Source: a virus
IMG/VR virus record: IMGVR_UViG_3300043389_000001
Location: 1-46,655 of that record
Reading direction: 5' to 3' (one strand)
Length of the DNA stretch: 46,655 nucleotides
A program made the translations under genes and the position numbers. Below the pieces are notes generated by a model. It was not told the DNA's origin, did no database searches, and saw only the letters and a list, made by a program, of their open reading frames with translations. Below, in pieces: positions 8,495 through 23,907 of the stretch. The first letter of the stretch is position 1; each line of letters opens with the position of its first letter.

Positions 8495-8817
8495 GTCGTT
8501 CCGCTCAGCGGGTGTGGCCGGCGGAGTCACTGCGCGTGGAAGACATCGTCGATCTGCGCGAGCTGCAGTGGCGCCGCCGGGCCGCCTGCCAAGGAACTGA
8601 CCCAGACATGTGGTTCGCCGCCGAAAGCACCACAGAGCGGGCCGTACTGGAACGCATCTGCTCCACCTGCCCGGTCTTCACCGAGTGCCTCGACCACGCG
8701 ATCGCCTACGACGAGAAGGGGTTCTGGGCCGGGACCACCCGCATCGACCGGCACGAAATCGTGGCCGAAGAAACCGGGCAGGCGCCGAAGTACCACCGAT
8801 ACGAACCCAAGCACTGA
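8491..8817 (+). CDS. whiB: WhiB-family Fe-S transcription factor
   Basis: AAC...DMWF...ICSTCPVFTEC...GFWAG: four Cys plus G[IV]WGG-like turn; GTGA overlap. Confidence 0.88.
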   Translation: MSRSAQRVWPAESLRVEDIVDLRELQWRRRAACQGTDPDMWFAAESTTERAVLERICSTCPVFTECLDHAIAYDEKGFWAGTTRIDRHEIVAEETGQAPKYHRYEPKH

Positions 8818-8828
8818 GGCAGGAGCGT

Positions 8829-9131
8829 ATGGCCAAGAAGAAACTCATCGGCAGCCTGCACGCCCACGGCTGCAGCCAGTGCCACACCCGCTACGAGGAC
8901 GCCTGCCTCACCCCCGACGACGACGGCCCGTGCAGCCCCTGCCGGGGCCTGAAGGCATGGCAGCTCCTCATCGACAACATGGCCCCGCGCGAGTGCTGCC
9001 GCGAAACCGCCCGGCTGGTCAACAAGGACGACAAGGACCGGTACAAGCTGGCCGGCAAGCACCTGTGGTTCATCTGCAAGAAGTGCTCGCGCACCCACCC
9101 GTTCGACCCCAAGCCGAAGGCCAGAGCATGA
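8829..9131 (+). CDS. Cys-rich (multi-CxxC) hypothetical protein
   Basis: CSQC, CSPC, CC, CKKC; RBS AGGAG. Confidence 0.7.
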   Translation: MAKKKLIGSLHAHGCSQCHTRYEDACLTPDDDGPCSPCRGLKAWQLLIDNMAPRECCRETARLVNKDDKDRYKLAGKHLWFICKKCSRTHPFDPKPKARA

Positions 9132-9511
9132 GCGAGAACTACGACGGCTACGACGACGAGTACGACGTCGAACTACCCTCCGAGGAGGAAACCATGACCG
9201 AGGCCACCCCCACCCGCAACCTGTCCATCGTGCGGTTCCCCGAAGGCGCGCACCGCTCCGCCTCCGGCCTGCCCAAGTTCGAGGGCCAGGACGTCGACTT
9301 CGCCCGGCTGAAGCTGACCTCCGCCAGCGATCTGGAGGTCAACGACGAGGCCCACCACATCGACGACATCGTGCGCCTGCAGGTCGAAGGCCGCGTCGTG
9401 CGGGTGGATCACGTCGTGGACGAGCGCACCGGCCACCTCAAGCGCGTGCACACCGTCAAGGTCTCCGAAGCCATCGAGCTGACCTGGGACGACTCGGTCG
9501 ACAAGCTATGA
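9128..9511 (+). CDS. Hypothetical protein
   Basis: ATGA overlaps at both ends, strong codon bias. Confidence 0.7.
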   Translation: MSENYDGYDDEYDVELPSEEETMTEATPTRNLSIVRFPEGAHRSASGLPKFEGQDVDFARLKLTSASDLEVNDEAHHIDDIVRLQVEGRVVRVDHVVDERTGHLKRVHTVKVSEAIELTWDDSVDKL

Positions 9512-9804
9512 CCCCACCGTTCATCGGCGACCAATCCCCCATGGCCTACGCCGAATCGCTGGGCCTGTCAGCCGTCTACACCGCCTTCGGCAGGGTCACC
9601 CACTTCGCCCGCTACCAGCACCCCCAGATGGACCGGCTCGCCTTGTGCTCGGTTCATCCGCGCTGGCCATGGACGTGGTACGGCACCGGCAACCAGGACG
9701 AGATCGACAAGGCCGAGTCGATGCCGCTGTGCACCCGATGCTTGGAAAACCTCACCGGGCTCAAAGAATCTGACACAACCTCATGGGTCGGTGATCACGA
9801 GTGA
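9508..9804 (+). CDS. Hypothetical protein (H..C..CxxC)
   Basis: Coupled ORF; RVTH, ALC, LCTRC. Confidence 0.65.
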   Translation: MTPPFIGDQSPMAYAESLGLSAVYTAFGRVTHFARYQHPQMDRLALCSVHPRWPWTWYGTGNQDEIDKAESMPLCTRCLENLTGLKESDTTSWVGDHE

Positions 9805-10085
9805 GCGTCCCCTTCGACCCCGCCGGAATCGCCGAGTTCAAGCCGGCCCGCGCCCTGCCGTTCCACATCAGCTCCATCAACCTGAACCCCGATGGATCAC
9901 TGGAGATCCAGTACCTCGACAAAGAGGTGGATGTGAAGGCCATCGGCGCTGTCCTCATGCACAGCCTGCTCGTGCCACCGACCGAGGACTACGCCGACAA
10001 CATCCAATCCATCCGCGATGCAGCCGGTTTCCTCGTGGCGGACGTGACCGAGGACTGGGACAACCTCGAACCCGACATGGAGTAG
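9801..10085 (+). CDS. Hypothetical protein
   Basis: GTGA overlap, codon bias. Confidence 0.65.
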   Translation: MSVPFDPAGIAEFKPARALPFHISSINLNPDGSLEIQYLDKEVDVKAIGAVLMHSLLVPPTEDYADNIQSIRDAAGFLVADVTEDWDNLEPDME

Positions 10086-10087
10086 AC

Positions 10088-10435
10088 ATGACCCTCGTCC
10101 CCAGCATCCCCACGAACAAGGCGCCCCGCAGGATTGTGTGCCCCGCCTGCCGGGCCCTCGGTTCCGGCGAGGACTGCGTCGAGCGCATTGGACATGCCAG
10201 ACGCGAGAAGTCAGAGCCGGACATGAAGGTCACCGAGTACGACGAGCCCGAGTTCGCCGACCTTGAAGTGGTGGTCCGGTTCTCCGTATCCACCGAGGTC
10301 GACGGCGAACCGCTACGCCAGAAGGCGCTCGCCCTGCAGGCCGAGCTGGCCGACTCCCCGGACGCGCTGATCGCGTTCGTGGACGACTACAGCTCCTATG
10401 ACGTGCAGGTTCTCACCCCAGCCGAGCATGGCTGA
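10088..10435 (+). CDS. Hypothetical protein
   Basis: GGAG before ATG 10088; CPAC motif; acidic C-terminal half. Confidence 0.55.
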   Translation: MTLVPSIPTNKAPRRIVCPACRALGSGEDCVERIGHARREKSEPDMKVTEYDEPEFADLEVVVRFSVSTEVDGEPLRQKALALQAELADSPDALIAFVDDYSSYDVQVLTPAEHG

Positions 10436-10823
10436 AACCTCAAAGGAGCGGGCTGCCAGCGAAACGCTGGCCATCCCGCAGTGGGTCCGAGACGTCGTCG
10501 ATGAACGCGATCAGCAGACCTGCCGGGTCTGCGGCAGGCACCTCGGCGACGCTCGGGCCCTGCATCACATCCGCTTCGGGGGCAGCCGACAAGGCATGGG
10601 CGGGCGGCGCGACCACGACCCATCCAACCTGGTCACCGTTTGCTGGATGTACGGACCAGGCAAGGGATTGCCCCCCTGCCACGACCTCGTACACCGCGAA
10701 AAGGGCACATACCTGCCGCTGCTGGAGTACGTCGCCACCCACCCCGGAGTGACGGCCTTCCAGCTTCGGCGTTGGCGCAAAGCAGAAGGAGACCAGCGTG
10801 AGCACAGGACTGATCGCGGCTGA
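10428..10823 (+). CDS. HNH endonuclease
   Basis: RD..TCRVCG, LHHI, SNLVTVC...CHDLVH. Confidence 0.82.
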   Translation: MAETSKERAASETLAIPQWVRDVVDERDQQTCRVCGRHLGDARALHHIRFGGSRQGMGGRRDHDPSNLVTVCWMYGPGKGLPPCHDLVHREKGTYLPLLEYVATHPGVTAFQLRRWRKAEGDQREHRTDRG

Positions 10824-12786
10824 CGGCACCATCACCGACCCCTACCGCCAGTTCATCGCGGTCAGTCGCTACGCCCGATGGCTCGACAGCGCAGGCCGCC
10901 GGGAAACGTGGAGCGAAACCGTCACCCGATACGTCGACTTCTTCCGCGAGCACCTGGTCGAAGGCCACGGCTACGACCCGCTGGACCCCACCTTCCACGA
11001 GGTGCACGAGGCGATCCTGAACCACCGGGTCATGCCCTCCATGCGCGCCCTCATGACCGCCGGGCCGGCCCTGAAGCGCTCGCACATCGCCGGGTACAAC
11101 TGCTCCTTCATCGCCGTGGACGACCCCCGCGCCTTCGACGAGGCCATGTACATTTTGCTCAACGGCACCGGCGTCGGGTTCTCCGTAGAAGCACGCCACG
11201 TCGAGAAGCTGCCGCATGTGCCCGCCGCATTCTGGGCTTCGAAAACCACCATCACCGTGCAGGACAGCAAGGAGGGCTGGGCTGAGGCGTTCCGCGACCT
11301 GCTGGACGAACTGTGGACCGGCCTCATCCCCTCGATCGACTACAGCCAGATCCGACCTGCCGGAGCACGCCTGAAGACCTTCGGCGGCCGGGCATCAGGC
11401 CCCGAACCACTCCAGCGGCTCTTCGACTTTGCCATCAACCAGTTCAAGATCGCCGCTGGGCGTGCCCTGACACCGATCGAGGCACACGACCTGATGTGCT
11501 ACGTCGGCGACGTCGTCGTCTCAGGTGGAGTGCGCCGCTCAGCGCTGATCAGCCTCTCGGACCTGTCCGACCAGAACATGGCCACCGCCAAGTCCGGTGC
11601 CTGGTGGGAGAAGACCGGTCACCGCCGCCTGGCCAACAACAGCGCCGTCTACATGAACAAGCCCACCCCTGAGCAGTTCGAGCGCGAGTGGAACAACCTG
11701 ATCGAGTCCCAGTCCGGTGAGCGCGGCATCTACAACCTTGCCGGCGCCCGCGACCATGCCACCGCGCAGGGCCGCGACGGCTCCCGCATCGACGGGACTA
11801 ACCCGTGCGGGGAGATCCTGCTGCGCAACATGGAGTTCTGTAATCTCACCGAGGTCGTCATCGACCCCGATGACACGATGACCGAGCTGATCGACAAGGT
11901 TCGCATCGCCGCCATCATCGGCACGTGGCAGTCCACCCTCGTGGACTTTCAGCACCTGCGCCCGCAGTGGCGCGAGAACTGCGTCCAGGAACGGCTGCTG
12001 GGCGTCAGCCTCACCGGCATCTACGGTCACCCGGTCCTGTCCAACCCCGACGCCGCGTGCCTGCCCGAGGCGCTGAACGACATGCGCCAGATGGCCCACA
12101 TCACCAACCAGCGCGAAGCTCTCAAGGCCGGGATCGCCGCCTCCGCCGCCATCACCTGCGTCAAGCCCTCGGGCACCGTCAGCCAGCTCACGGGCGTCTC
12201 CTCCGGCATCCACCCGTGGCACGCCAAGCAGTACATCCGCACCGTGCGGGGCAACAACACCGACCCGCTGACCAAGATGATGACCGACTACGGCGTCCCC
12301 CACGAGCCGGACATCATGAAGCCCGACACCACCACCGTGTTCTCCTTCCCCGTCAAGGCCCCGGCCGGCGCCACCATCGGCGATGACATCACTGCGCTGG
12401 AGCACCTGAAGCTGTGGGCGCTGTACCGCAAGCACTGGACCGACCACAATCCCTCCATCACTGTCTCGGTGTTGCCCGAGGAGTGGGCCGAGGTCGCCGA
12501 CTGGGTGTACGAGAACTGGGACGCTGTCGGCGGGATCAGCTTCCTGCCCAAGGATCTGGGCATCTACCAGCAGGCCCCGTATCAGCCGTGCGACGAGGTC
12601 ACCTACGCCCGCATGGTCAAGAAGATGCCGGAGATCGACTGGACCTCGCTGTCGTTCTACGAGCAGACTGACTCCACCACCAGTTCACAGGAACTGGCGT
12701 GCACCGCCGGGGCTTGCGAGATCGTCGATATCGCGAGTGTCCCTGCAGTAGGGAGTATTCAGACATTGCAAGCGATCAGCGCATGA
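10798..12786 (+). CDS. nrdJ: Class II (adenosylcobalamin-dependent) ribonucleotide reductase
   Basis: MPSMRAL, YNCSF, GTGVGFS, GGVRRSA, TNPCGEI, FCNLTE, VKPSGT, C-terminal CTAGAC redox pair; no beta-subunit gene adjacent. Confidence 0.9.
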   Translation: MSTGLIAADGTITDPYRQFIAVSRYARWLDSAGRRETWSETVTRYVDFFREHLVEGHGYDPLDPTFHEVHEAILNHRVMPSMRALMTAGPALKRSHIAGYNCSFIAVDDPRAFDEAMYILLNGTGVGFSVEARHVEKLPHVPAAFWASKTTITVQDSKEGWAEAFRDLLDELWTGLIPSIDYSQIRPAGARLKTFGGRASGPEPLQRLFDFAINQFKIAAGRALTPIEAHDLMCYVGDVVVSGGVRRSALISLSDLSDQNMATAKSGAWWEKTGHRRLANNSAVYMNKPTPEQFEREWNNLIESQSGERGIYNLAGARDHATAQGRDGSRIDGTNPCGEILLRNMEFCNLTEVVIDPDDTMTELIDKVRIAAIIGTWQSTLVDFQHLRPQWRENCVQERLLGVSLTGIYGHPVLSNPDAACLPEALNDMRQMAHITNQREALKAGIAASAAITCVKPSGTVSQLTGVSSGIHPWHAKQYIRTVRGNNTDPLTKMMTDYGVPHEPDIMKPDTTTVFSFPVKAPAGATIGDDITALEHLKLWALYRKHWTDHNPSITVSVLPEEWAEVADWVYENWDAVGGISFLPKDLGIYQQAPYQPCDEVTYARMVKKMPEIDWTSLSFYEQTDSTTSSQELACTAGACEIVDIASVPAVGSIQTLQAISA

Positions 12787-13097
12787 TGCACTCGAACCCC
12801 TATCTTGCGTCAAGGACAGGCACATGGACCCCGACCGAGCCCGCGTGGCTGGCTCCGGTGACGTATATCAGCCCTCAAGCGGAGGCAGCCCACGTGATCG
12901 CGAACAGAAAGGCCAGCCAGAAGATCTCGCCGGCAGTGACGGCGGCTCTGGCAGTGCTGGGGACGGTGACAGCGATGGTGCTGGCGGTGCTCATCGCCTA
13001 CCGCAGTGGCCTGCGCCTGCAGACCCTGACCGGCGAACCGCCCTTCGGCGTCGGGGCCCTGGGGGACGACACCGAGAACGACACCGACCAGGAGTGA
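12783..13097 (+). CDS. Single-pass membrane protein
   Basis: ATGA overlap with RNR stop; hydrophobic AVTAALAVLGTVTAMVLAVLIAY. Confidence 0.6.
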   Translation: MMHSNPYLASRTGTWTPTEPAWLAPVTYISPQAEAAHVIANRKASQKISPAVTAALAVLGTVTAMVLAVLIAYRSGLRLQTLTGEPPFGVGALGDDTENDTDQE

Positions 13098-13237
13098 CCA
13101 GACCCGGGCGGGTGGGCCGCCACACACGGCGGCGGCCCACCCGCAAGGACTTCACCCTGTGGGGCACGTTCATCGTCGTGGTGTTCGCGCTGGTCGTGGT
13201 GGCGGCCGTGCTGATCTTCAGCCGCATGGTGCGCTGA
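13094..13237 (+). CDS. Small membrane protein (47 aa)
   Basis: GTGA overlap; basic N-terminus then FIVVVFALVVVAAVLIF. Confidence 0.55.
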   Translation: MTRPGRVGRHTRRRPTRKDFTLWGTFIVVVFALVVVAAVLIFSRMVR

Positions 13238-13240
13238 GGT

Positions 13241-14413
13241 TCAGACCCGCCGCCAGCGGGCCCACCCCTGCGGGGAGACCCAGCACTCATACTGGTTGCC
13301 GTACTTGTCCAAACCCCTTGTCGGGCCCTTGATGTCACAGGCGTGACCATTGATGACGTCGCGGGCGTAGGTGACCGTGGTGGGGTTGATGGCATCACGC
13401 GCGGTGGCACTCAGTGCCCCCGTCGGGGTGCGCAGGGCGGTGTTGGAGACGATCGGCACCGCCCGCAGGACGTCGTTGAGGGCCTCGATCACGCCGGTGT
13501 CGTACAGCCGGTAGTCCCCGGTGGCGCGTTCCTCGGGGCCGATGTGGAACCAGACGAAACCTCGGATGCGCGGGGTGGCCTCAAGGTAGCCGGCCAAGGA
13601 CTTGGTCCACTGCGGTGCGGGGACTCCGGCTTGGTTGATGCCGTTCTGGGCGCCCATCTCGGGGATCACGAAGTCCCGCTGGGTGATGGTGGCCAGCTTG
13701 GCGAACGTCTTGCCGTAGGTGGTGGCCGCGTCCTTGTCCCACCCGTACCCGGTGGTGCCGGCGAAGTCGACGCGGTCATCGCCGGGCCACACGGTGGACA
13801 GGTCCGGCGCCGTGATGCGCAGATTGTTGATCGCCGCGCACGCCCACACCCACCGGATCTTGGTGGCCTGAGCGAAGATCGCGCGCACCCGGTTCCAGAA
13901 CGCGATGTACTCAGCAGCGGTGTTGCCGTTCTGGCCCACCGCCCACGGGTACCAGTGCCCATTCATCTCGTGGGCCAAGCGCAGGTACACCGGCTTGTCG
14001 AACGCCGCGATCAGCGCGGCGATCTTGCCCAGTTCGGCGTCGTAGCGCCCGGCGATGAACTCGCGCAGCGCCAGCTCCGGGCCCATGTCCATGGGCTTGG
14101 AGTCCCAGAACCACGGCTCCAGCGTCAGGAACGGTGTCAGGCCCCGGGAGTCGAAGCGCTGCAGGGTCTCGATGCCGAAGCCGCCGGTGAGCTTGACGAA
14201 GTAGGCGCCCACGGCCGGGCGGCGCACCAGCGGGGCCGTGACCTGATCCAGCAGGGCTAGGTCACGGCCGGGCACGAACACCCCGTACCAGCGGTTGGGT
14301 GGATACACGGGCTCGTCCCCTCGAAGCACGGCGTAGGCGGCTGCACCAGTGATCGTCAGACCGGCAGCGGCAAGGAAGGCACGCCGGCTTCGAGGGGACT
14401 CGGGTTCGCTCAT
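13241..14413 (-). CDS. Glycoside hydrolase family 26 with Tat signal
   Basis: SRRAFL twin-arginine plus hydrophobic stretch; TLEPW, G.YD, YLRLAHEMNGHWYPW (acid/base), WPGDD.VD, IPEMG (nucleophile); ATGA-coupled to upstream GT2. Confidence 0.88.
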   Translation of the reverse strand: MSEPESPRSRRAFLAAAGLTITGAAAYAVLRGDEPVYPPNRWYGVFVPGRDLALLDQVTAPLVRRPAVGAYFVKLTGGFGIETLQRFDSRGLTPFLTLEPWFWDSKPMDMGPELALREFIAGRYDAELGKIAALIAAFDKPVYLRLAHEMNGHWYPWAVGQNGNTAAEYIAFWNRVRAIFAQATKIRWVWACAAINNLRITAPDLSTVWPGDDRVDFAGTTGYGWDKDAATTYGKTFAKLATITQRDFVIPEMGAQNGINQAGVPAPQWTKSLAGYLEATPRIRGFVWFHIGPEERATGDYRLYDTGVIEALNDVLRAVPIVSNTALRTPTGALSATARDAINPTTVTYARDVINGHACDIKGPTRGLDKYGNQYECWVSPQGWARWRRV

Positions 14414-17400
14414 GTGCTGACGAAAATCCTTCCCACCAGCGGGGCGAGGTAGTACGAGTACGCGGTGGAGATGTGCGACTCATCCCGGTACACCAGCAGG
14501 TTGCCCACGATCGAGGGGCAGTCCTCGCCCCCGCAGAACCAGTCCATCGGGTCGATGTAGGCGATGTGCGCCGCCGTCAGCGTCTCGGCCAGCCGATCCC
14601 CTCGACCGGAGTACGCCGCCGCGTACTGCCGCTTGACCGTGCACGAGCCCACATCATTCAGATTCAGCGCCACACAGTCCGGCACCGACTCCTGGTGGTA
14701 GGGGGTGTCCCCCACGTACACCACCGGAATGTCCGCCTGCTGCAACAAGTCCAAGCTGACGGCGGTCTGCTGCGCCCACTGCTGGTCCGAAACACCGTCA
14801 CCGGGGACCGAGTTCGACTGTGACACGATCACCAGGTCCGGGCCGGTCAGCTTGATCTTCTCGATGACCTCCTTGCGCCAGGTGTTGCACTCGGTGAAGT
14901 TGCGGGCCAGCACCGTGTTGAACACCGTGATGTCCGCCAGCGGGCACGCCGCCTTGGTCCACGCATACAGCTTCCACCCCTGATCGCGGGCGGCCTTGTC
15001 CAGACCCGGCAGCCACTGCTGGGCGTGGGAGTCGCCCACGAGGATGGCGGTGCGCTTGGGGTCCTCGCGGTCCCCGTAGACGCAGTCCGAGGGGATGGCG
15101 ATCTTGGTGTAGTCGAGGTGGCAGCCGTTCTTGGACGTGACCGGCTGGTCCTTGCCGGCCTCCTCCAGCGTCGGGGTCAGGTTCGAGGGCGCCGAGGTGA
15201 TCTGCGTGCCCTCCACCACCGCTCGCTGCACCGCCGCCAGACCGCCGGTGTCGAGGCTGACGGTCACCGCCGCAGCGCCCGATCCGATCAGCGGTGGCAT
15301 CGTCCACATTGCGATCAGCGCCACCACCGCCACGGTGGCTGACATGCCCAGGCCCAGTGAGGTCCACAGCAGCTTGCGCAGGTGGGTGCGGCGCACCGGG
15401 GACTCGATGACCCAGTACGACAGCGTGGCCACCCACAGGGCCAGCACCATGAGCTGCAGGTTGGTGCCCCACCCGAACTGGAACTTGAACAGGAACGGCG
15501 CCAGGATCACGAACGGCCAGTGCCACAGGTACCACGAGTAGCTGACCGCCCCGATGCCCTGCATGGGCCGGCGATCCAGCAGGATCTCTGCGCTGCCTGC
15601 CGTCTTGCGGCACCCGGCCGCGATCACCGCCACCGTGGCGGCCACCGGCCAGATCGCCGCCGAGCCCGGGAACGGGGTCTCGTCGGTGAACACGAACGCC
15701 GTGGCCAAGATCCCGATCAGGCCCACCCACGACAGGGCCACCGCCAGCCACGCGGGCTGACGCGACAGCCGCTGAGCGCCCAGCGCCAGCAGCGCACCGG
15801 CCGCCAGCTCCCACGCCCGGGTGTGCAGGGAGAAGTAGGCCAGCGGAGCGTTGGAGGCGGTCACCGTCACCGACAGGTACACGCCCGTGGCCACCACAGC
15901 CAGCAGCACGCCGGTCACCACGGTCTTGAAGTGCCGGCGTCCCAGCCACAGGCACGCCATCAGCAGCAGCGGCCACACGAAGTAGAACTGCTCCTCCACC
16001 CCCAGGGACCAGAAGTGCTGCAAGGGGCTCTCGGGGCCGGCGGCGTTCTGGTAGTCCACGCCCTCGTGGGCCAGCCGGTAGTTCAGCCCGTAGGCGGCGG
16101 TGTAGACCGCGTGCATGGCGATCTGCTTGAACTGGAACGGGCTGCCGAACTGGCGGGCCACCAGCACCGTGGTCACCAGCACCACGGCGGCCGGGGGGAT
16201 GAGGCGGCGGAAGCGGTTGGCGTAGAAGTGGCCGAAGTGGATGCGCCCGGTGCGCTCGACCTCGCGCATCAACTGCCCGGTGATCAGGAACCCGGAGATC
16301 ACAAAGAACACGTCCACGCCCACATAGCCGCCGGTCAGGTACGGCACCGAGGCGTGGTACAGCACCACCAGCAGCACACCGATAGCCCGCAACCCCTGAA
16401 TGTCGGGGCGGAAGCGCCGCACCCCAGCAGCCTCAGGGCGCAGGTCCATGGGCGGGCGGACCTCGGGCACCTCCAGCACCGGGATCGGCGCTGTCGTGGG
16501 CACCACGAACCGCTGAGCGGGGATCGTCGCGGTCACCGACCCCGCCGGTTCGCTGGTCGGGACCGGTGCGGGGGCCTTGACCTTCTTGCCGGTGGAGACG
16601 AACAGCAGCGGCAGGTGGATGTACGTGGCCAGCGATGCCAGCGCGAGCATCGCCCAGAACTTCTCGAAGCCGTAGACGTACGTGCCGTGCAGCAGACCGA
16701 TCCACAGCAGCGAGTACGTCGTGCCCACGTAGATCTTCATGGTGCGCCCGATGGTCACCGACAGCGGCGTGGTGCGGGTGTTCGCGGCCCCGGTGGCCAC
16801 CCACTCCTTGGTGCGCCCGGTCAGCAGGTGCACGATCGCCACCGCATGGGCGAAGGAGTACAGCACCTGGATGCGCAGCACCTCGATCCGCCAGCGGCCC
16901 TTCATCACGCTCGGCAGGATCACGAACCACAACAGCAGCGCACCCAGCAGCCAGATCGAGTTCATCGGCTCGATCCACTGCGGCAGGAAGAACAGCATCG
17001 CCAGCGCCGGCAGCGGCGCGGTGAACGCATTCAGGCCGGTGGAGATGTAGTACAGGAACCCGGCCCAGAAGCACAGACGCTGGCGGAAGGAGATGTGCTG
17101 GGCGGCGTGGAAGTTCTTGTCCGCCAGCAGCGACATCGAGCCCGTGCACCAGCGGTACTGCTGATTCAGGAACCCCGAGACCGTGTCCGGGCACAGGCCC
17201 TTGGAGATGATGATCGGCACGTACCGCACGTGGAAGCCGACCTTCATCAGGTTCACGCCGGTGTGCACGTCCTCGGAGTGGCCGATCTGCGCGAACCCGC
17301 CGGACTCCTCCAGCGCTGAACGCCGGTACACCGCACAGGTGCCCACGCAGATGGCCGCACGGGACTTGTCCCGGGAGGGCTGGATGAACCGGTAGAACAA

Positions 17401-18264
17401 CTCCTGCGTAGAGCCGGCGCAGCGCTGCAGCCAGTTCATTCGCTTGTCGGTGTCGAAGAACTGCGGGGTCTGCACGATCCCGACGGTGGGGTCCTCGAAG
17501 TACGGCAGGATCTCATCCAGTGCGTCATGGCGGGGCGCAAAGTCAGCGTCGAGGATCAGGATGAAGTCGCCGTCGGATCGGTCGTAGCCGAACTTCAGGT
17601 TCCCGGCCTTCTTCAGATAACCCCGGTTGGGCCGGGTCAGGTAGTGAAACCCGAACTCGTCGGCTATGTCCAGCACCTCGGGCCGGGCCGAATCATCCAG
17701 CACGTAGACGTTCAGCTCCGCCGGCCACGCCAGATGGGCGACGTACCAGTAGGTGTTGCGCAGGATGTCCAGCGGCTCACCGGCCGAGGGCAGGAAAACA
17801 TCCACGCTGGGCAGGTAATCCGGATTCCATGAGGACACCCGGTGCTCGTGGTCGAGCATGTCCGTGCGTTTCCTGCGCCCCGAGGACAGCAAGCTGATCA
17901 GCAGCGTCAGCGAATACAGGCTCATGGGCAACAGAAACAACAGCAGCCGCGTGTCGGCCGTGGCAAACCGGAAGATCGAGTACGCGATCAGAGCGAACGA
18001 CGTGGCCTGGGCAACCAGCAACCAGCGGTGCTGTTTGCCCATGTACCAGTACTTTTCCCGGTTCGACGGTGGACTGGGATACGGGGAGAGCTGTGGCCTG
18101 TGGACAGGCTTTTCCGTAGCGACATGAGAGGACACGAAAGAGGGGGCCTTCCCGAGAGATAGGTGCGCGTCAACCATCGAAGTGCACTTATCGGTGACCG
18201 GGCACAACTTTCGTGCAGAATCAGCAGAACTGGTGACTGGGTAGTCGTTCAGATGCTGCGCCAT
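14410..18264 (-). CDS. Fusion: cellulose-synthase-like GT2 + acyltransferase-3 + SGNH O-acetyltransferase domain
   Basis: GT2: DVFLP, LDDS, KAGNL, DADF, QTPQ, FYRFIQ, SED, QQYRW. AT3 from about 16420: RPDIQGLRA, GVDVFFVISGFLIT, HFWSLGVEEQFY, SYSWYLWHWP. SGNH: GDSH, DESH. Start may be ATG 18177. Confidence 0.92.
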   Translation of the reverse strand: MAQHLNDYPVTSSADSARKLCPVTDKCTSMVDAHLSLGKAPSFVSSHVATEKPVHRPQLSPYPSPPSNREKYWYMGKQHRWLLVAQATSFALIAYSIFRFATADTRLLLFLLPMSLYSLTLLISLLSSGRRKRTDMLDHEHRVSSWNPDYLPSVDVFLPSAGEPLDILRNTYWYVAHLAWPAELNVYVLDDSARPEVLDIADEFGFHYLTRPNRGYLKKAGNLKFGYDRSDGDFILILDADFAPRHDALDEILPYFEDPTVGIVQTPQFFDTDKRMNWLQRCAGSTQELFYRFIQPSRDKSRAAICVGTCAVYRRSALEESGGFAQIGHSEDVHTGVNLMKVGFHVRYVPIIISKGLCPDTVSGFLNQQYRWCTGSMSLLADKNFHAAQHISFRQRLCFWAGFLYYISTGLNAFTAPLPALAMLFFLPQWIEPMNSIWLLGALLLWFVILPSVMKGRWRIEVLRIQVLYSFAHAVAIVHLLTGRTKEWVATGAANTRTTPLSVTIGRTMKIYVGTTYSLLWIGLLHGTYVYGFEKFWAMLALASLATYIHLPLLFVSTGKKVKAPAPVPTSEPAGSVTATIPAQRFVVPTTAPIPVLEVPEVRPPMDLRPEAAGVRRFRPDIQGLRAIGVLLVVLYHASVPYLTGGYVGVDVFFVISGFLITGQLMREVERTGRIHFGHFYANRFRRLIPPAAVVLVTTVLVARQFGSPFQFKQIAMHAVYTAAYGLNYRLAHEGVDYQNAAGPESPLQHFWSLGVEEQFYFVWPLLLMACLWLGRRHFKTVVTGVLLAVVATGVYLSVTVTASNAPLAYFSLHTRAWELAAGALLALGAQRLSRQPAWLAVALSWVGLIGILATAFVFTDETPFPGSAAIWPVAATVAVIAAGCRKTAGSAEILLDRRPMQGIGAVSYSWYLWHWPFVILAPFLFKFQFGWGTNLQLMVLALWVATLSYWVIESPVRRTHLRKLLWTSLGLGMSATVAVVALIAMWTMPPLIGSGAAAVTVSLDTGGLAAVQRAVVEGTQITSAPSNLTPTLEEAGKDQPVTSKNGCHLDYTKIAIPSDCVYGDREDPKRTAILVGDSHAQQWLPGLDKAARDQGWKLYAWTKAACPLADITVFNTVLARNFTECNTWRKEVIEKIKLTGPDLVIVSQSNSVPGDGVSDQQWAQQTAVSLDLLQQADIPVVYVGDTPYHQESVPDCVALNLNDVGSCTVKRQYAAAYSGRGDRLAETLTAAHIAYIDPMDWFCGGEDCPSIVGNLLVYRDESHISTAYSYYLAPLVGRIFVST

Positions 18265-18267
18265 CTC

Positions 18268-18292
18268 GTCCGGATATCAGACATATCCGGAC
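18268..18292. promoter_or_regulatory. Operator-like inverted repeat GTCCGGATAT-N5-ATATCCGGAC
   Basis: Perfect 10-bp arms directly upstream of the GT2 fusion ORF. Confidence 0.45.
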
Positions 18293-18294
18293 AC

Positions 18295-18328
18295 GAGTAA
18301 GGCCCGGCACGAATGCCGGGCCTTACTC
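18295..18328. terminator. Perfect 15-bp hairpin between lsr2 and the GT2 cassette
   Basis: GAGTAAGGCCCGGCA-CGAA-TGCCGGGCCTTACTC; the minus-strand loop reads UUCG. Confidence 0.65.
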
Positions 18329-18356
18329 CTTCCCCTCCGATCGGCGATCTTAGCGC

Positions 18357-18776
18357 TCAGCTCTCCTGCGCCTGTTCGTAGGCGGCCATCACCTGCGCCG
18401 ACAGACGACCCCGGTCGGTCACGGTGAACCCGTTCTCCTTCGCCCATGCGCGCACGTGTGAGGAGTTCACCTCGTGGTTCGGCTTCCGCTTCGAACGGGT
18501 CTTCTGTTTGCGCTGCGGGCGCGGGGTCAACTGCTCGACCTTGTCCTCCAGCAGCGTCAGCTCCGTATCCAGATCGCCCTCGAACGCCGTGGCTTCCGGG
18601 TTGTAGTGGTGCTCACCGATGACCGCCGCCTTCGCCACGTATAAGGCCATCATCTCGTGAAACAATTTCTGGTTCTTTTCCGCCAGGTCGATCGAGTACG
18701 TCTTCCCCTCGTACCCGAACACCACCTGCTCGGCCCCGATCGTGCCGTCGAGGTCGTCGGTGCGCGTCCAGCCCAT
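18357..18776 (-). CDS. lsr2: Lsr2-family nucleoid-associated protein
   Basis: DDLDG...V.FG..G..Y.IDL dimerisation domain; VRAWAKENG..V..RGRL AT-hook domain; RBS AGGAGG. Confidence 0.9.
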   Translation of the reverse strand: MGWTRTDDLDGTIGAEQVVFGYEGKTYSIDLAEKNQKLFHEMMALYVAKAAVIGEHHYNPEATAFEGDLDTELTLLEDKVEQLTPRPQRKQKTRSKRKPNHEVNSSHVRAWAKENGFTVTDRGRLSAQVMAAYEQAQES

Positions 18777-18874
18777 GATTCCTCCTGTAGGTCGAGCCCA
18801 CAGTTTGACCATAAAGACGATGCCCCGGTAGCCACGAAGCAGCTATTCACCCACCCGGAGTAAACACGTCGACT

Positions 18875-19204
18875 TCAGGCATAGATCACGTCCAGCGCCG
18901 GGAACTCGTCCACGGCCAGTGGTGTCATGACCCGGCCCGGGTCCAGCACTGCGACGCGAACACAGTCATCGCAGCAGATCTGCACGGCTGGCAGCCACCG
19001 CTGGGTCTCGACGATGCCGAAGCAGAACATGCAGCGCAGGCCCCCGACCCACACATTGCAGCCATCAAGGTGCTGAAACTCGTGAAGGCGGCCAATCCAC
19101 AGCGCATGACTGCTACGAACGGCCCGTGCGAGAACGCCGTGGGTCTCGCACACCGACTGCCAAAGGGAAAGAGAACCCCGAGGTGGCGTGATGAGTAACG
19201 ACAT
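18875..19204 (-). CDS. Possible small CxxC protein (start uncertain)
   Basis: 3' part of ORF 18875..19885 reads CMFC...CCDDC...; the 5' extension looks spurious. Confidence 0.3.
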   Translation of the reverse strand: MSLLITPPRGSLSLWQSVCETHGVLARAVRSSHALWIGRLHEFQHLDGCNVWVGGLRCMFCFGIVETQRWLPAVQICCDDCVRVAVLDPGRVMTPLAVDEFPALDVIYA

Positions 19205-19513
19205 GTTGCCGAGTGTAACCACACGTATCTGACGAGTCACTGCCTCAGCCGCAGACTCAACCGTTTGACGAAGCTTCAAGCACACCCTCAACGCCCGCCA
19301 CACAAAGGAGGAAACAGCCCATGCGCGGACAGACCTGGGGCTAGGCTGCTCCAGTCGCAGGCGAGCAACGAGCCACCCCGTATCTGCGCTCGCCTGCGGC
19401 ACCCTCACCCGAACTACCGATACATGGCGCTGGACACTGATAAGTGCCGCCAGGTAGAAATAACGCCATGCACCGGGTGAGGCCCGGTGACTGAGCGGAC
19501 CGGTGAGGCCGGT

Positions 19514-19562
19514 TGCCCTCGGAACAAGCTGACCTCTAAACAGCTTGAGCCGAGGGCATTTT
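19514..19562 (+). terminator. Long hairpin followed by TTTT
   Basis: TGCCCTCGG/CCGAGGGCA plus inner CAAGCTG/CAGCTTG, then TTTT. Confidence 0.55.
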
Positions 19563-19616
19563 CGCGTCCAGACCCTGCACTCGAATGACCGTCTTCCGTC
19601 ATCCCTGAGGGTCGCC

Positions 19617-19925
19617 ATGCTCACCCGGGTCTCCAACGTCACCCGCCTGCCCAAGCACCGCCTCGGCGGTCCATCCGCCCTCGACCTCGAAGCCCTCTTC
19701 ACCGAACAGTGGCACGTCTCGCGCTCCTTCCCCGGCGAGGACCACACTCTCGAACGCACATGCCGATGCCTGAAAGCACCGTGCGGCATGGCCTTTCCCA
19801 CTGCCGGCGTGTCCTGCGACCAGCACCTAGGCCAGAAACCCATCCGCCAGTACCACCGCGCTCGCGACTGTAAGTACCTGCGCATCGGCGTGTTTCGCTG
19901 GTTCGGAAGGAATGACCATGGCTGA
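19617..19925 (+). CDS. Cys/His-rich hypothetical protein
   Basis: GAGGG before ATG; CRC...CG...CDQH...H...C. Confidence 0.6.
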   Translation: MLTRVSNVTRLPKHRLGGPSALDLEALFTEQWHVSRSFPGEDHTLERTCRCLKAPCGMAFPTAGVSCDQHLGQKPIRQYHRARDCKYLRIGVFRWFGRNDHG

Positions 19926-20412
19926 ACCCAAGATCGTCCTGCTGCGTGACGCTCGCAAATACGTACAGAACAAACGCTTCGAAGGCGTCATCTGCCCCTG
20001 CTGCGACCAGAACGCCCGCGTCTACAAACGCCGCCTCACCCACTCGATGGTCCAAGCCCTCATCGGCCTGTACCGCGCCGGTGGCATCAGCGAATGGGTC
20101 CACGGTCCCTCCATCACCCGCGAACACCGGGGCGAAGAAGCACGCCTACAGTACTGGGGACTCATCGAGCCGGCCACCGCCGAGAGCAAGCCGCTCGGCG
20201 CGCAGCGCGGCTACTGGCGCGTCACCCGCCGGGGCCAGCTCTTCCTGTCCAACAAGATCTCCGTCCCCGCCTACGCCCAGGTCTACAACGCCCGATCGTT
20301 CGGCCTGCGCGGCAAGCCCACGAAGATCACCGACATCCTCGGTAGCCGCTTCAGCCTCAAGAAGCTGCTCGCCGACGAAGTAGAACCCGAGGAATTCGAT
20401 GGCGCACCCTGA
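19912..20412 (+). CDS. Hypothetical protein (CPCC; possible winged-helix)
   Basis: RBS AAGGA, codon bias, WGLIE...GYWRVT.RG pattern. Confidence 0.7.
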   Translation: MTMAEPKIVLLRDARKYVQNKRFEGVICPCCDQNARVYKRRLTHSMVQALIGLYRAGGISEWVHGPSITREHRGEEARLQYWGLIEPATAESKPLGAQRGYWRVTRRGQLFLSNKISVPAYAQVYNARSFGLRGKPTKITDILGSRFSLKKLLADEVEPEEFDGAP

Positions 20413-20596
20413 CCCCATACCCGGCTCCAAGAAAGAGATCTGGGTCTTCCTCGTCGAATTCCCTGACCGACTCGTCGGGGACGCAGCCGTCACATACGTC
20501 CTCGACGGCGACAGCGACGACGTGCGAGTCCACCTCGTACAGCGCCTGCCCTTCCCCGCCCCGCCCAAGGCCCTCGACCTGACATTGGTGGACTGA
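20399..20596 (+). CDS. Hypothetical protein
   Basis: RBS GAGGA, fills the operon. Confidence 0.6.
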   Translation: MAHPDPIPGSKKEIWVFLVEFPDRLVGDAAVTYVLDGDSDDVRVHLVQRLPFPAPPKALDLTLVD

Positions 20597-20597
20597 C

Positions 20598-20876
20598 ATG
20601 CCCCTCGGCAAGATCGAAATCGCACGCTGGATGGTCCTGCAGGAACCCTTCGACGAACCCGCCGTCAGGATCACCGTCGACATGAGCGGACGAAAGGGTA
20701 GCCTCGACACCTACATTGGTGAACTCGACGAAGCCTACGCCAGCGCCACCCACGCCATCCGCCGCGAGCACGACCGCCGAGAAGCGCTGCGCCAGCGGGT
20801 GATCGACGCACAGCTCGCCGCCGCCAACGAGCAGACCCGGCTGGAGAACGAAGGCCAGCAGCAGGCAACCCCGTGA
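20598..20876 (+). CDS. Hypothetical protein
   Basis: Tightly packed, codon bias. Confidence 0.65.
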   Translation: MPLGKIEIARWMVLQEPFDEPAVRITVDMSGRKGSLDTYIGELDEAYASATHAIRREHDRREALRQRVIDAQLAAANEQTRLENEGQQQATP

Positions 20877-21094
20877 CCCCGTTCCGCTTCAACTTCCAGC
20901 ACTACTGGACCGGCACCGTCTTCCCCGAGAACGGACGCTCACCACTGCCGGGCATCAACATCTTCATCACCACCAACGAGACCCTCACCCCGGTCGAATT
21001 CACGGTGGTGTGGGACAGCGCTACCCGTGAGATCCGCGCCAAGATCCTCGCCGAGATGGACAAACAAGATGCTCAGCCGGCCCACCACCGATGA
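20873..21094 (+). CDS. Hypothetical protein
   Basis: GTGA overlap. Confidence 0.6.
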   Translation: MTPFRFNFQHYWTGTVFPENGRSPLPGINIFITTNETLTPVEFTVVWDSATREIRAKILAEMDKQDAQPAHHR

Positions 21095-21314
21095 CCTGAA
21101 CGTCGAACACCTCCTCATCAACGGCGACTTCTGGCTCACCGTCGACGAAGTCGCCACATGGCTACGCGTCACCCGCTCATGGCTGAAAACCGAATGCGAC
21201 AGCGGCCGAATCCCCCACCACAAATTCGGCGACCGCACCGTCCGGTTCCGCTACTCCGACCTTGAGGACTACCTCAGAACCGCCTGGAGGCCCCGCTATG
21301 CCTACGATTCCTGA
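21069..21314 (+). CDS. Excisionase-like HTH_17 DNA-binding protein
   Basis: WLTVDEVATWLRVTRSWL...GRIP..KFG.RTVRF...DLEDYL. Confidence 0.8.
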   Translation: MLSRPTTDDLNVEHLLINGDFWLTVDEVATWLRVTRSWLKTECDSGRIPHHKFGDRTVRFRYSDLEDYLRTAWRPRYAYDS

Positions 21315-21576
21315 CACCCTGCGCTTCTTCCCCGTCGACGCGCAGATCGCCCACCTGCACACCGTCACCCAGCGCACCGTGGCCCTGCCCGTCGGGTCCG
21401 TCATCGCCACCGTACCCAGCGAATTCGCCACCATGCGCGTGGCCCTGCACCTGACCGAAGAACCGTACGACCCCGAATGCGACATCCACTTCAGCCAGAT
21501 CACCAGCCTGCAGAGCGCCATCGTCGTGCAGTACATCAACGGCCTGTACCGCGTGGCCCCCACCTCTCAGCCATGA
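21298..21576 (+). CDS. Hypothetical protein
   Basis: RBS GGAGG before ATG 21298. Confidence 0.65.
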   Translation: MPTIPDTLRFFPVDAQIAHLHTVTQRTVALPVGSVIATVPSEFATMRVALHLTEEPYDPECDIHFSQITSLQSAIVVQYINGLYRVAPTSQP

Positions 21577-21857
21577 ACGATGCCGAACCCGACAACCGGA
21601 TCATCGGGTACCTGTTCAGGGTCAAGAACGACCAAGAGGGATTCGGGATCTACAAGGGCGACAAGATCGTCTGCGTCGCCAGCGACTGGGACCCCGTATA
21701 CAAGCTGACCGTCTGCTACCGAGAGAGCGACCTGTTCGACCCGCAGATGAACATCTACCGCGAAGACGTCCACCACCTCGAAAGCCTGATCTGGATCGAG
21801 TGGCGCGACGGACGCTACTGGCCAGCGGCAGCACCCGAACCATCCCCCCAGGAATGA
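21573..21857 (+). CDS. Hypothetical protein
   Basis: ATGA overlap. Confidence 0.65.
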   Translation: MNDAEPDNRIIGYLFRVKNDQEGFGIYKGDKIVCVASDWDPVYKLTVCYRESDLFDPQMNIYREDVHHLESLIWIEWRDGRYWPAAAPEPSPQE

Positions 21858-21875
21858 CCGCAACCGCGTGTGGGC

Positions 21876-22196
21876 ATGGACTGCACGCTCACACATGTCG
21901 ATGACACCGACATGTACAGGGTGCTGAGCGTGGTCGAAGAGATGAGCGCGACCTTGGCGGAGGCGGCCCAGAATTTAGGCAAAGCCCTACGCGCCATCGA
22001 CGCCGAAATGAGCAACCTTGAAAAGCGCCTGTCCGCCGACGCAGCAAAACTCGAAGAGGCCCTCCTTCGAGCTGAACTGTCCGAAGCTGACCGCGAGACC
22101 CTCATGGCTGCCCTCGCCCGCGTTGAAGGCACAGCCGCCGCCGTCGCCAACTTCACCCACAAGCGCGATGGGTCCATGCCACCGCACCACCCCTGA
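21876..22196 (+). CDS. Coiled-coil hypothetical protein
   Basis: Heptad-like Leu/Ala/Glu sequence; start uncertain (21876 or 21912). Confidence 0.5.
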   Translation: MDCTLTHVDDTDMYRVLSVVEEMSATLAEAAQNLGKALRAIDAEMSNLEKRLSADAAKLEEALLRAELSEADRETLMAALARVEGTAAAVANFTHKRDGSMPPHHP

Positions 22197-22218
22197 ACCA
22201 AGAAGCATCAGCAAGACT

Positions 22219-22291
22219 GCCGGCGTAGCTCAGCGGATAGAGCGACAGATTTCTAATCTGTGGGTCGCGGGTTCGAATCCTGCCGCCGGCA
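22219..22291 (+). tRNA. tRNA-Arg(UCU)
   Basis: Acceptor GCCGGCG/CGCCGGC, D-stem GCTC/GAGC, anticodon stem ACAGA/TCTGT with loop TT-TCT-AA, T-loop TTCGAAT; no encoded CCA. Confidence 0.92.
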
Positions 22292-22292
22292 C

Positions 22293-22487
22293 ATGAGCGA
22301 GAATTACCACGGGCGTAGGCCCACCGAGCAGGAATGCTGGGAGAACTACTGGCATGTCGTCTCCGCCCAGATCGGCCGGGCCTACGCCCGAGGCGTCAGA
22401 GCCCCTCAGGTTCCAGCTCCCAGAGCCCCAGAATCCGAACCTTCGCCTGCGGTTCTTCCGGGTTCCACGAGCCCGGAAGAACCGTGA
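22293..22487 (+). CDS. Small ORF convergently overlapping the integrase 3' end
   Basis: ATG two bases after the tRNA discriminator; first 35 codons look protein-like. Confidence 0.35.
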   Translation: MSENYHGRRPTEQECWENYWHVVSAQIGRAYARGVRAPQVPAPRAPESEPSPAVLPGSTSPEEP

Positions 22488-23907
22488 TGCGCCCGATCAC
22501 CTGACGAAGAGCAATCTGCTGTTCCTCGGGGCTGGCCAGCGTCTCCCAGTTCGCGTACAGATCTTGCAGGGCCGGACGCGGGTCAGCCTTCTTCGCCTTT
22601 TTCAGGCGCGCCACCTCGTCCAGACGGCTCTTGGCCATCGTCATCTGCGTCTCCAGCTCGCTGTACTTCTCCTCATAGTGATCCTCGGCAACGTTTCCCT
22701 TCACGAACAGCGTCAATAGCCGCTTCATCTGACCCTCAAGGTCGGACAACTGCTTGCGCAGAGATTCCGCATCCGCTTCAACCGCGCCGGCTGCCGCTTC
22801 GGCCTCCTCCGGGAACCATTCACCCTCCGCCCGCGATTCCAACCACGTCCGCAGCGCGACCATCGCACGGATATCCGAGATGTTCGCCCCCGGGCAGCCC
22901 AGCTCCCCCTGGTCGGCCTTTTTCTTGCACTTCCAGTACGGGTAGCCGTTGGAGTAGTTGACGACCATTGCCCAGCCGCACTGATCGCATTTCATCATTC
23001 CGGTCAGCACCCGGTTAGGGACCTTGGTGCGAGGGGCGACCAGTCGGTTCGCCAGCCGCATTCTCTTGTACCTCTCGAAGTCCTCCTCCGAGATGATGGT
23101 CTCCTGTCCACCGCGACGCCAGATGTCGAACGCCTCAAGCGTCTTCTGCGTCGGGTACTTCTTCCTCTGGTCCGCTGACTTCTCCCGGATAAACCCGGCT
23201 GCGAATCCGGTATCCAGCATGACCGTGACCGACTGCGGGGTGAATAGATTGCCCTGTGGATTGCGGATTCCCAGATGGTTCAGCTCCATCGAGAGCGTTC
23301 GGAAGCTGGTACCAGCGAGGGCCCGGCTGTACAGCGCGGCCAGAATGGGGCCGGTCTCTTCACTCACGATGTACGTCTTACGCCCCTTTATGGTCACGTA
23401 GTCGTACCCGAAGCGCGGAGCCCCACTGTGAGGTAGAGCGTGCTCCCGCCGGTGGTTGTGGGTCTCCTTCCAGCCCTCCGACTTCATGTTCGATTCCATG
23501 GCCGCGATGGTCAGCAGCATGTCCCGGGTGAACTGACCGATGATCGACTCGGGGTCGATGTCCTCGGTGGCCGAGTAGACCTCACCGCCAGCCTCCTGAA
23601 CCTGAGCAAGGTAGGCCCCGGACAGGACAGAGTTACGACCCCAGCGCGACCACTTCCACAAGATCACGGCCTCGTACTGGCCCTCCCTGATCTCGTCGAC
23701 CATCTGGCCAACCGCACGCTTCTCGAACCGCCGTCCGCTCTTGTTCAGGTCTTGGATGACCTTGACGATGCGGTACCGGTTCTTGGCCGCCCACTCGCGG
23801 GCCGCCGTCTCCTGGATCTCCGGCGAGATCATGTTCTCGCGGCCCTTCGAAACCCGGACATAGACGACAGCGCGGCGCCAGTTTGCCTGCGGTGCAACAA
23901 GATTCAT
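22396..23907 (-). CDS. int: Large serine integrase
   Basis: AVVYVRVSK (catalytic Ser), D..KSG, SRWGR, PRFGY recombinase domain, CDQCG...CK...C zinc ribbon, coiled coil. Confidence 0.95.
   Translation of the reverse strand: MNLVAPQANWRRAVVYVRVSKGRENMISPEIQETAAREWAAKNRYRIVKVIQDLNKSGRRFEKRAVGQMVDEIREGQYEAVILWKWSRWGRNSVLSGAYLAQVQEAGGEVYSATEDIDPESIIGQFTRDMLLTIAAMESNMKSEGWKETHNHRREHALPHSGAPRFGYDYVTIKGRKTYIVSEETGPILAALYSRALAGTSFRTLSMELNHLGIRNPQGNLFTPQSVTVMLDTGFAAGFIREKSADQRKKYPTQKTLEAFDIWRRGGQETIISEEDFERYKRMRLANRLVAPRTKVPNRVLTGMMKCDQCGWAMVVNYSNGYPYWKCKKKADQGELGCPGANISDIRAMVALRTWLESRAEGEWFPEEAEAAAGAVEADAESLRKQLSDLEGQMKRLLTLFVKGNVAEDHYEEKYSELETQMTMAKSRLDEVARLKKAKKADPRPALQDLYANWETLASPEEQQIALRQVIGRITVLPGSWNPEEPQAKVRILGLWELEPEGL

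Follow-up and report, generated by a model that had tools for sequence, protein, structure and literature searches.

Polysaccharide pathways built from a synthase, a hydrolase and an acylase are known from the Bcs, Wss, Ccs and Csl systems, as described in the available portions of two reports (PMC11022532, PMC8892547). Here, we analysed a window of 46,655 nucleotides, the first 46.7 kb of the 137,972-base virus record IMGVR_UViG_3300043389_000001 in IMG/VR, and focused on a two-gene cassette on its minus strand. The first gene encodes a fusion of a processive family 2 glycosyltransferase (GT2) with an AT3 membrane acyltransferase and an SGNH domain, and the second encodes a GH26 endo-glycanase with a twin-arginine N-terminus. 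In the reading that we prefer, with a probability of about 0.55, these two genes would make an O-acylated mixed-linkage beta-glucan that is expressed in lysogens and benefits them by receptor masking or aggregation.

Compared with the described systems, the cassette has both familiar and distinct features. Like BcsA-BcsB-BcsZ, Wss of Pseudomonas fluorescens and Ccs of clostridia, it would combine a processive GT2 with an endoglucanase that is exported and with O-acylation of the exported chain (PMC8892547, available part). Unlike them, it has no PilZ, BcsB or BcsC, and its hydrolase belongs to GH26 rather than GH8 or GH5. Its acylase is an AT3-SGNH module fused to the synthase, whereas Wss and Ccs use separate AlgI/WssH-type and SGNH acetylation proteins. 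The Streptomyces CslA-GlxA-CslZ system, as far as PMC11022532 describes it in its available part, is similar in that an actinobacterial glucan synthase of GT2 is encoded together with a hydrolase; the cassette is without GlxA, and CslA, which is set apart here by its description and not by sequence, is without a fused acylase. The mixed-linkage synthases BgsA, RiGT2 and AfTFT1 share the GT2 motif set D,D,D,QxxRW, and BgsA is also without PilZ. In the available descriptions, through which alone they were compared, none of the three has a fused acylase or comes from a phage, and unlike theirs, the mixed-linkage product of the cassette is deduced from partner hydrolases. A supplementary tree of TFT1 relatives in bioRxiv 10.64898/2026.09.17.752320 may bear on where the fusion belongs among these enzymes.

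Several phages carry related parts. The acylases of Pseudomonas D3, of the Salmonella OafB/GtrC type and of Gordonia BritBrat and LonelyBoi have the AT3-SGNH motifs, come from temperate phages and show 26-35% identity, but they match only the C-terminal half of the fusion. In the cyanophage S-CBWM1, gp157-gp158 include a cellulose-synthase-like GT2 (34.5% over 255 residues), which differs in having a PilZ domain and an HlyD partner and no acylase or glycoside hydrolase annotated nearby, and which is known from annotation only. The mangrove-soil phage GX15bay (MK557849) has a GT2 next to GH26 genes in the order GT2-GH26-GH26, but this GT2 is of another, shorter type (453 amino acids, 25% identity), there are two GH26 genes, and an adjacent acylase is absent. 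A phage-borne processive GT2 is thus already precedented at the annotation level (S-CBWM1, GX15bay), and the initial annotation overstated its case in holding that phage converters only modify polymers of the host. GX15bay is both the sole terminase relative (38.5%) and the sole GH26 match among 50,697 phage records, and it has capsid and tail-tube homologs too; this suggests that the phage group may have acquired such cassettes more than once. The GX15bay cassette was published among degradative auxiliary genes, in a report that, in its available part, presents viral carbohydrate-active enzymes as decomposition genes (PMC6460857). Besides GT2-GH26-GH26, GX15bay, among named phages the nearest in head and tail genes, carries a further run of glycosyltransferase genes before its terminase (L315; MK557849 7105-10888 and 13126-18249).

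No description of the fusion or of its GT2 subfamily was found in the mostly open literature searched, for which the exact fused architecture was not a search phrase. What is new is that synthase and acylase share a single chain and that modules can be swapped, and the gene kit is apparently unstudied. The broadest proposal, which we put forward only tentatively, is that a large temperate actinophage lineage might convert its hosts through a self-sufficient single-chain synthase-acylase and so build an acylated mixed-linkage glucan coat de novo.

Domain architecture of the fusion and its partner hydrolase

The GT2 fusion, the GH26 with its Tat (twin-arginine translocation) motif, the ATGA overlap, the intact motifs and the antisense position, all named in the initial annotation, were borne out by open reading frames (ORFs), Pfam and motif inspection. 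The two ORFs share bases 14410-14413, which read ATGA on the minus strand, and Pfam assigned a GT2 domain to fusion residues 156-458, followed by Acyl_transf_3 and SGNH domains (Table 1). In the GT2 domain, the motifs DD190-191, KAGN, DAD239-241, QTPQ, SED330-332 and QQYRW368-372 contain the D,D,D,QxxRW set of processive synthases, and these residues are invariant or nearly so across 41 aligned sequences. When residues 60-560 were compared with PDB sequences, the top matches were BcsA proteins (E 1.6e-38). An AlphaFold2 model of fusion residues 68-1267, built from 105 sequences (predicted local distance difference test score 91.9, predicted template modelling score 0.88), has two N-terminal membrane helices that precede a GT-A domain and interface helices; another four membrane helices follow, and a disordered linker leads to AT3. 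It aligned with residues 61-578 of R. sphaeroides BcsA (VIA Z 28.8, 467 residues, root-mean-square deviation 4.1), with the catalytic and channel regions matched, and the predicted membrane channel region with interface helices is that of processive GT2 synthases. The alignment stops just short of the PilZ arginine 580 of BcsA, named in the available part of PMC10374906; Pfam found no PilZ domain in the fusion, in which the disordered linker follows the BcsA-like part instead. With 191 bits against a cut-off of 699.1, the protein also missed the CelA/BcsA family TIGR03030. As judged from model and motifs, the GT2 works like a processive synthase yet falls outside BcsA, because PilZ and BcsB are missing and the CelA score is low.

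The acylating half contains the full motif set of OafA/OafB-type AT3-SGNH proteins, defined in the available part of PMC7448272 by R/K-X10-H, FFxISG, RxxR and a Ser-Asp-His triad. R626-X10-H637, FFVISG (F653-G658) and R684xxR687 of AT3 are invariant across the 41 aligned sequences, as is the triad S1079/D1261/H1264, which lies in the SGNH motifs GDSHA (S1079) and DESH (D1261/H1264). The SGNH fold matches the periplasmic domain of a Salmonella lipopolysaccharide acetyltransferase (6se1, Z 18.9). Since an even number of membrane helices follows the GT domain, the AT3 N-terminus would be inside and SGNH outside. The group transferred by this module, an acetylase in the initial annotation, need not be acetyl. 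AT3 enzymes move several acyl groups according to the available part of PMC9558356, and the top NCBIfam match of the fusion was the SucT model, far under its cut-off (253 vs 1275).

The GH26 scored 32 bits in Pfam against a cut-off of 20.2 and has a TIM barrel with two catalytic glutamates in HEMN (E149) and PEMG (E252), both of which are invariant across nine aligned GH26 sequences. Tat signals follow the consensus S/T-R-R-x-F-L with a hydrophobic region, and SRRAFL at residues 9-14 agrees with this, so that export is predicted. The RR motif also occurs in four relatives (P0122, P0125, P0127 and P0128), and four other close homologs begin downstream of it. In profile comparison, the enzyme was much nearer the lichenase CtLic26A (E 3.5e-23) than mannanases (4.4e-9), and Foldseek with the GH26 model gave the same order (9e-20 for CtLic26A vs 2e-12 for a mannanase; TM 0.79-0.84 by target).

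The fusion frame 18264-14410 exists as annotated, but its true start is probably ATG 18177 or GTG 18135. A downstream start is supported because the GC content at third codon positions (GC3) is 0.65 in the first 60 codons vs 0.91 in the complete gene, because most of the homolog N-termini listed begin at a conserved PxPP motif or at most about 30 residues from it, and because an upstream hairpin lies only about 30 bases from 18264. This perfect 15-bp hairpin would likely be a terminator between the Lsr2 gene and the cassette. Perfect 10-bp inverted repeats, one of which lies beside it, are common across the phage genome (45 overlapping matches).

The window contains a second GH26 gene, at 45174-46631 on the minus strand, encoding 485 amino acids without a signal peptide. 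Its product starts with a short coiled-coil-like stretch, continues with Gly-Pro-Thr repeats and a beta domain, and reaches the GH26 domain (WEMNG, WDEGG) by a Pro/Thr linker; it is weakly nearer mannanases than the lichenase. Several of its 31 homologs lie on contigs of 137.9-139.5 kb, and it may possibly be a virion-borne or lysis-released depolymerase of the phage group.

Chromosomal relatives and the proposed polymer

All three fusion domains were present in 64 of 120 proteins among the matches listed, including the protein of the window, and the named ones are all actinobacterial (Quadrisphaera, Actinotalea, Curtobacterium, Nocardioides and Pengzhenrongella). In a FastTree phylogeny of 63 fusions, for which only SH (Shimodaira-Hasegawa) support and no clade test was computed, P0001-P0006 form a clade (SH 100) whose sister is P0007/P0138 and which falls within the chromosomal fusions. 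Judging from equal contig sizes, relatives of the fusion and of the GH26 appear to share contigs of 12,639, 18,157, 23,995, 139,343 and 466,300 bases, and the 18,157-base contig seemingly also carries a relative of the second GH26. P0001-P0006 are likely a phage clade, as seen indirectly. The GT2 part was matched at E 1e-70 or better in 33 of 401 genomes sampled from the class of G024, including the unpublished G056, which is used in no other count, and in 21 of 401 sampled from the family of G023. Rather than being specific to phages, the cassette represents a compact version of a modular actinobacterial system that resides mainly in chromosomes and is widespread among actinomycetes. The search for the gene pair, which had been proposed as a check, found the identical two-gene order standing alone in chromosomes at L054 and G454; in the latter, the fusion (76% in GT2) and then GH26 lie amid housekeeping genes, among them aspS, hisS and secF. 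Tandem GT2-GT2 proteins of the subfamily, with 1069-1216 amino acids, also occur (P0217, P0220, P0260 and P0261).

Searches of viral and other collections gave only partial relatives. None of the 81 matching phage records covered 80% of the fusion, nearly all of the 30 listed matching the C-terminal half only, and neither did any of 1257 matching plasmid records. Scans of IMG/VR, where near genomes are possibly missing, returned only AT3-SGNH halves or nothing when the query was the fusion or its alignment, P0006 or the GT2 part, a single distant locus for the GH26 alignment, none for the portal, and relatives at only 52-64% identity for the ribonucleotide reductase (RNR). A GT2 half or terminase relative was found in 0 of 22 IMG/VR records carrying GH26. 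The metagenome scan gave distant GH26 only (best segments 25-39%), and the ESM Atlas gave generic actinobacterial GT2 clusters only.

The chromosomal loci point to a modular system with exchangeable parts. About 5 kb on each side was fetched for 32 of 36 class-level and 6 of 22 family-level places, giving 38 chromosomal loci; outside these stand G024 (= L054), G056, two partial matches, G454, which was treated apart, and 15 lower-ranked family matches. A hydrolase was present in 33 of the 38 loci (GH26 in 26, GH16 in seven, both in none), and three of the five loci without one are truncated by contig ends. Among control loci with AT3 only, which span 2.6 times more DNA than the GT2 loci, a hydrolase was present in 4 of 52, or in 6 of 54 when two GH26+AT3 loci set aside earlier are included. 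A decorator was likewise present in 33 of 38 loci, as AT3-SGNH in 13, PMT_2-type GT-C in 21 and both in one. Direct GT2 fusions to GH26 (four), GH8 (one) and PMT_2 (two) occurred among 50 long homologs picked from 150 listed. By a crude test, 27 of the 33 locus hydrolases have a hydrophobic N-terminal stretch; the RR motif is in just five, which makes predicted Tat export a trait of the branch to which the cassette belongs. With the fold match and this locus pattern, the two genes appear to form a single unit of synthase, decorator and hydrolase that serves a beta-glycan, as first proposed.

Some details of these loci stand on their own. Where AT3-SGNH is absent (L388, L390, L395, L396, L402 and others), a PMT_2-type GT-C lies beside the synthase, sometimes with a GT2-GtrA fusion. 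A UDP-glucose dehydrogenase gene is close by in 6 of the 38 loci. In L062 and L077, a second GT2 type resembling that of GX15bay occurs in chromosomes with AT3-SGNH and GH26.

The partner hydrolases were used to narrow down the polymer. The single GH16 partner tested is of the laminarinase/1,3(4)-glucanase type, and a bulged EIDVME-type motif is in five of seven others. Laminarinase-type GH16 enzymes require 1,3 linkages, and, going by the established specificities, mixed-linkage 1,3;1,4-glucan would be the sole backbone that GH26, GH16, GH6 and GH8 can all cleave. The product is probably a beta-glucan. Because the GH26 is nearest CtLic26A and because of the specificities of the GH16, GH6 and GH8 partners, mixed 1,3/1,4 linkage is somewhat favoured for it; among the substrates initially offered for the GH26, mixed-linkage glucan thus gains, and mannan and xylan are disfavoured by hydrolase profile, fold and GH16 partner.

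We propose that the GT2 would polymerise UDP-glucose of the host and, by analogy with BcsA, export the growing chain via the six-helix channel that it forms itself. The fused AT3 could then take an acyl group from acyl-CoA in the cytoplasm and pass it to the SGNH domain outside, as in OafA/OafB, and SGNH would decorate the chain as it emerges. The Tat-exported, lichenase-like GH26 would trim or release the glucan, a role like that thought for BcsZ, CcsZ and CslZ. Since PilZ is missing, control of the synthase would probably be transcriptional. Expression in lysogens is rather probable in our view; no RNA dataset was among the listed sequencing runs holding cassette DNA. The glucan would likely coat the host cell during the prophage state, and the lysogen would likely gain by masked phage receptors or better aggregation.

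Several observations weigh against this proposal. At the site equivalent to the BcsA gating loop, after the third interface helix, the fusion has WVATG and not FxVTxK, and a crude hydropathy scan detected just three of the six GT2 helices. No subfamily member with a known product was found, and, as stated for RiGT2 in the available part of PMC10374906, sequence and structure cannot tell cellulose synthases from mixed-linkage synthases. BcsA requires BcsB and CslA requires GlxA (PMC11022532, available part), and the cassette carries neither. The identity of the GH26 to CtLic26A is only 20-21%. Among fused chromosomal loci, 5 of 10 have no hydrolase nearby (L051, L052, L056, L058 and L071), and the split locus L061 carries GH6. 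The phage nature of the other P0001-P0006 members is read from contig sizes only. A scan for sigma-70-type promoters, a kind of scan that suits actinomycetes poorly, found none.

Phage linkage and alternative explanations

Two sequencing runs bear on whether the cassette belongs to the phage. In the first (X1, possibly the source of the record), a single contig of 65,380 bases covers 5001-24500 with zero differences and one flat depth. In the other (X2, from another study), a variant at roughly 92-96% identity is present, with pieces also over the replication genes. As X2 contigs of 1,869 and 1,265 bases cover 13104-14972 and 17813-19045, respectively, both cassette junctions are bridged. Of the X2 differences listed in GH26 (13271-13916), 18 of 23 were synonymous and five were replacements, where 25% synonymous would be expected; all nine fusion differences among those listed were synonymous (297 more rows lie beyond these). 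As read from these substitutions, the cassette is under purifying selection. Its GC3 of 0.89-0.91 is similar to that of phage core genes. Misassembly is very unlikely, because a variant phage from an independent study bridges both junctions, which answers the concern that the block might be misassembled host DNA.

That the block is host DNA, either misassembled or captured recently and without function, is accordingly rejected as largely refuted, with next to no probability left to it, even though the protein family is chiefly chromosomal and a second phage record with the complete fusion was not retrieved in the collections searched; the even X1 contig, the bridged junctions, the selection pattern and the GC3 all speak against it. 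We also reject, as highly improbable, a degradative reading in which the GH26 serves as an auxiliary metabolic gene against plant polysaccharide and its neighbourhood is incidental. Soil-virus GH26 has been so interpreted (PMC6460857, available part) and a Tat signal would also suit a secreted degradative enzyme, but the ATGA coupling to the synthase, the repeated adjacency to GT2 and the direct GT2-GH26 fusions point elsewhere. A question of timing is harder to dismiss. The polymer could be made during lytic infection, and not lysogeny, for competitor exclusion, envelope stabilisation or cell gluing: the cassette neighbours the replication block, the phage is large and has many metabolic genes of the lytic cycle, S-CBWM1 has its synthase among auxiliary genes, and the Chlorella virus hyaluronan synthase, known here from PDB titles, is a viral polymer synthase. 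We regard this as improbable but worth keeping in view, as the cassette runs opposite to the replication genes, is co-oriented with the integrase and is isolated by a strong hairpin. Such a layout would be expected of an independently expressed moron.

Two further explanations concern the product itself. The same machinery might make another backbone, namely acylated cellulose or (gluco)mannan, with a GH26 of matching specificity. The nearest solved synthases are cellulose synthases, the characterised GH26 enzymes in the match lists are mostly mannanases, GH6 and GH8 partners occur, and Gram-positive acetylated cellulose systems exist (PMC8892547, available part); against this, a laminarinase-type GH16 stands in for GH26 in 7 of 33 loci and the GH26 is much nearer the lichenase than the mannanases, which leaves another backbone a small but real chance. 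It is unlikely, on the other hand, that two genes are insufficient because a host activator is needed, or that a short glucan is added to a wall polymer while AT3-SGNH acylates a host structure. This would fit the absence of any gene for BcsB or GlxA, the Z of 25.6 at which PcManGT, a mannosyltransferase that does not polymerise, likewise aligns to the model, and the frequency of AT3-SGNH on its own as a converter in phages (81 matching phage records; Sf6 Oac, PMC9558356, available part). It agrees poorly with the presence of QxxRW and a complete channel region and with the decorator slot linked to GT2 in 33 of 38 loci. In addition, no BcsB- or GlxA-like gene was found among the cassette flanks or neighbours scanned, including 21 gap ORFs, and RiGT2 and AfTFT1 function when expressed alone in yeasts, according to the available descriptions.

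If the acylated mixed-linkage glucan that we prefer is the product, the phage would confer an entire new surface polymer via two genes, whereas classical converters merely decorate an existing one. The GT2 subfamily (33 of 401 actinomycete genomes) would then be a candidate source of mixed-linkage glucan. We also propose that the one-chain synthase-acylase would be a simple system for the coupling of polymerisation and O-acylation, which elsewhere is split over several proteins. Likewise, GH26 beside GT2 in soil viruses should not automatically be counted as carbon-degrading genes. On the more tentative proposal of a self-sufficient synthase-acylase supplied by a phage lineage, the cassette would be the first known case of a so far undescribed actinobacterial glucan system of modular build, with a GT2 core, a swappable acyl or glycosyl decorator and a swappable GH26 or GH16, and some GH26 genes of soil viruses that have been published as degrading carbon would belong to biosynthetic surface-coat cassettes.

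Genomic setting of the cassette

The virus record is classed as linear and 89% complete, and a 98-base repeat with two mismatches is common to both of its ends. Besides the integrase, the excisionase-like gene and Lsr2 (Table 1), it has genes for WhiB, Ku, an endolysin and a tape measure protein, and homologs of terminase, portal, capsid and tail-tube genes were identified via similarity to GX15bay. From this gene content, including integrase, excisionase-like gene, WhiB and Lsr2, the carrier appears to be a temperate phage of an actinomycete host. A specifically Streptomyces host was dropped, as the evidence points neither way. The integrase, excisionase-like, endolysin and tape measure genes, the terminase and capsid homology and the bridged junctions place the cassette in a temperate phage, as would be required of a moron. 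The replication block (exonuclease-Sak4-primase/helicase-WhiB-RNR) runs along the plus strand, antisense to the cassette, which is flanked directly by Lsr2 on one side and by a 47-amino-acid membrane ORF and then RNR on the other.

Table 1 Positions of the cassette, its domains and neighbouring features in the window
Feature	Position	Strand	Basis or remark
GT2-AT3-SGNH fusion, longest ORF 1284 amino acids	14410..18264	-	ORF scan, Pfam, motifs, model
BcsA-like processive GT2 module (predicted)	16585..18087	-	two N-terminal transmembrane helices, GT-A, interface helices, four more transmembrane helices, no PilZ
AT3 membrane acyltransferase domain, residues 621-951	15412..16404	-	Pfam E 4.9e-30
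Extracytoplasmic SGNH domain, residues 1048-1277	14434..15123	-	Pfam E 4.4e-33
GH26 endo-glycanase, 390 amino acids, twin-arginine N-terminus, small C-terminal beta domain	13241..14413	-	Pfam, motifs, alignment
Perfect 15-bp hairpin	18295..18328		directly past Lsr2 stop; z -5.85 for 18260-18360
10-bp palindrome, 5-base spacer	18268..18292		just upstream of ATG 18264; broken by insertions in X2 variant
Class II RNR	10798..12786	+	last gene of plus-strand replication block
Lsr2-like nucleoid protein	18357..18812	-	upstream neighbour of cassette, same orientation
Large serine integrase, temperate marker	22396..23907	-	phrog_95, E 4.9e-86
Excisionase-like gene	21027-21314		near integrase

The 47-amino-acid ORF (13094-13237, plus strand) is basic, has a single membrane helix and no Pfam match, and its stop is 3 bases from the GH26 stop. 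Two tRNA-Arg genes are present at 22219-22292 (plus strand, TCT) and 33229-33304 (minus strand, ACG), the first about 100 bases from the integrase stop. In G000, an ATP-dependent ligase, an AAA+ protein and Ku are clustered at 51257-54905 (L035) as an end-joining-like set. The GC content of G000 climbs to 0.76 at 100001-105000, and few genes passed the ORF filter across about 98600-111000. A separate glycosyltransferase (phrog_3408) lies within the structural region (L038 9194-10303; G000 111194-112303) and may possibly serve virion glycosylation.

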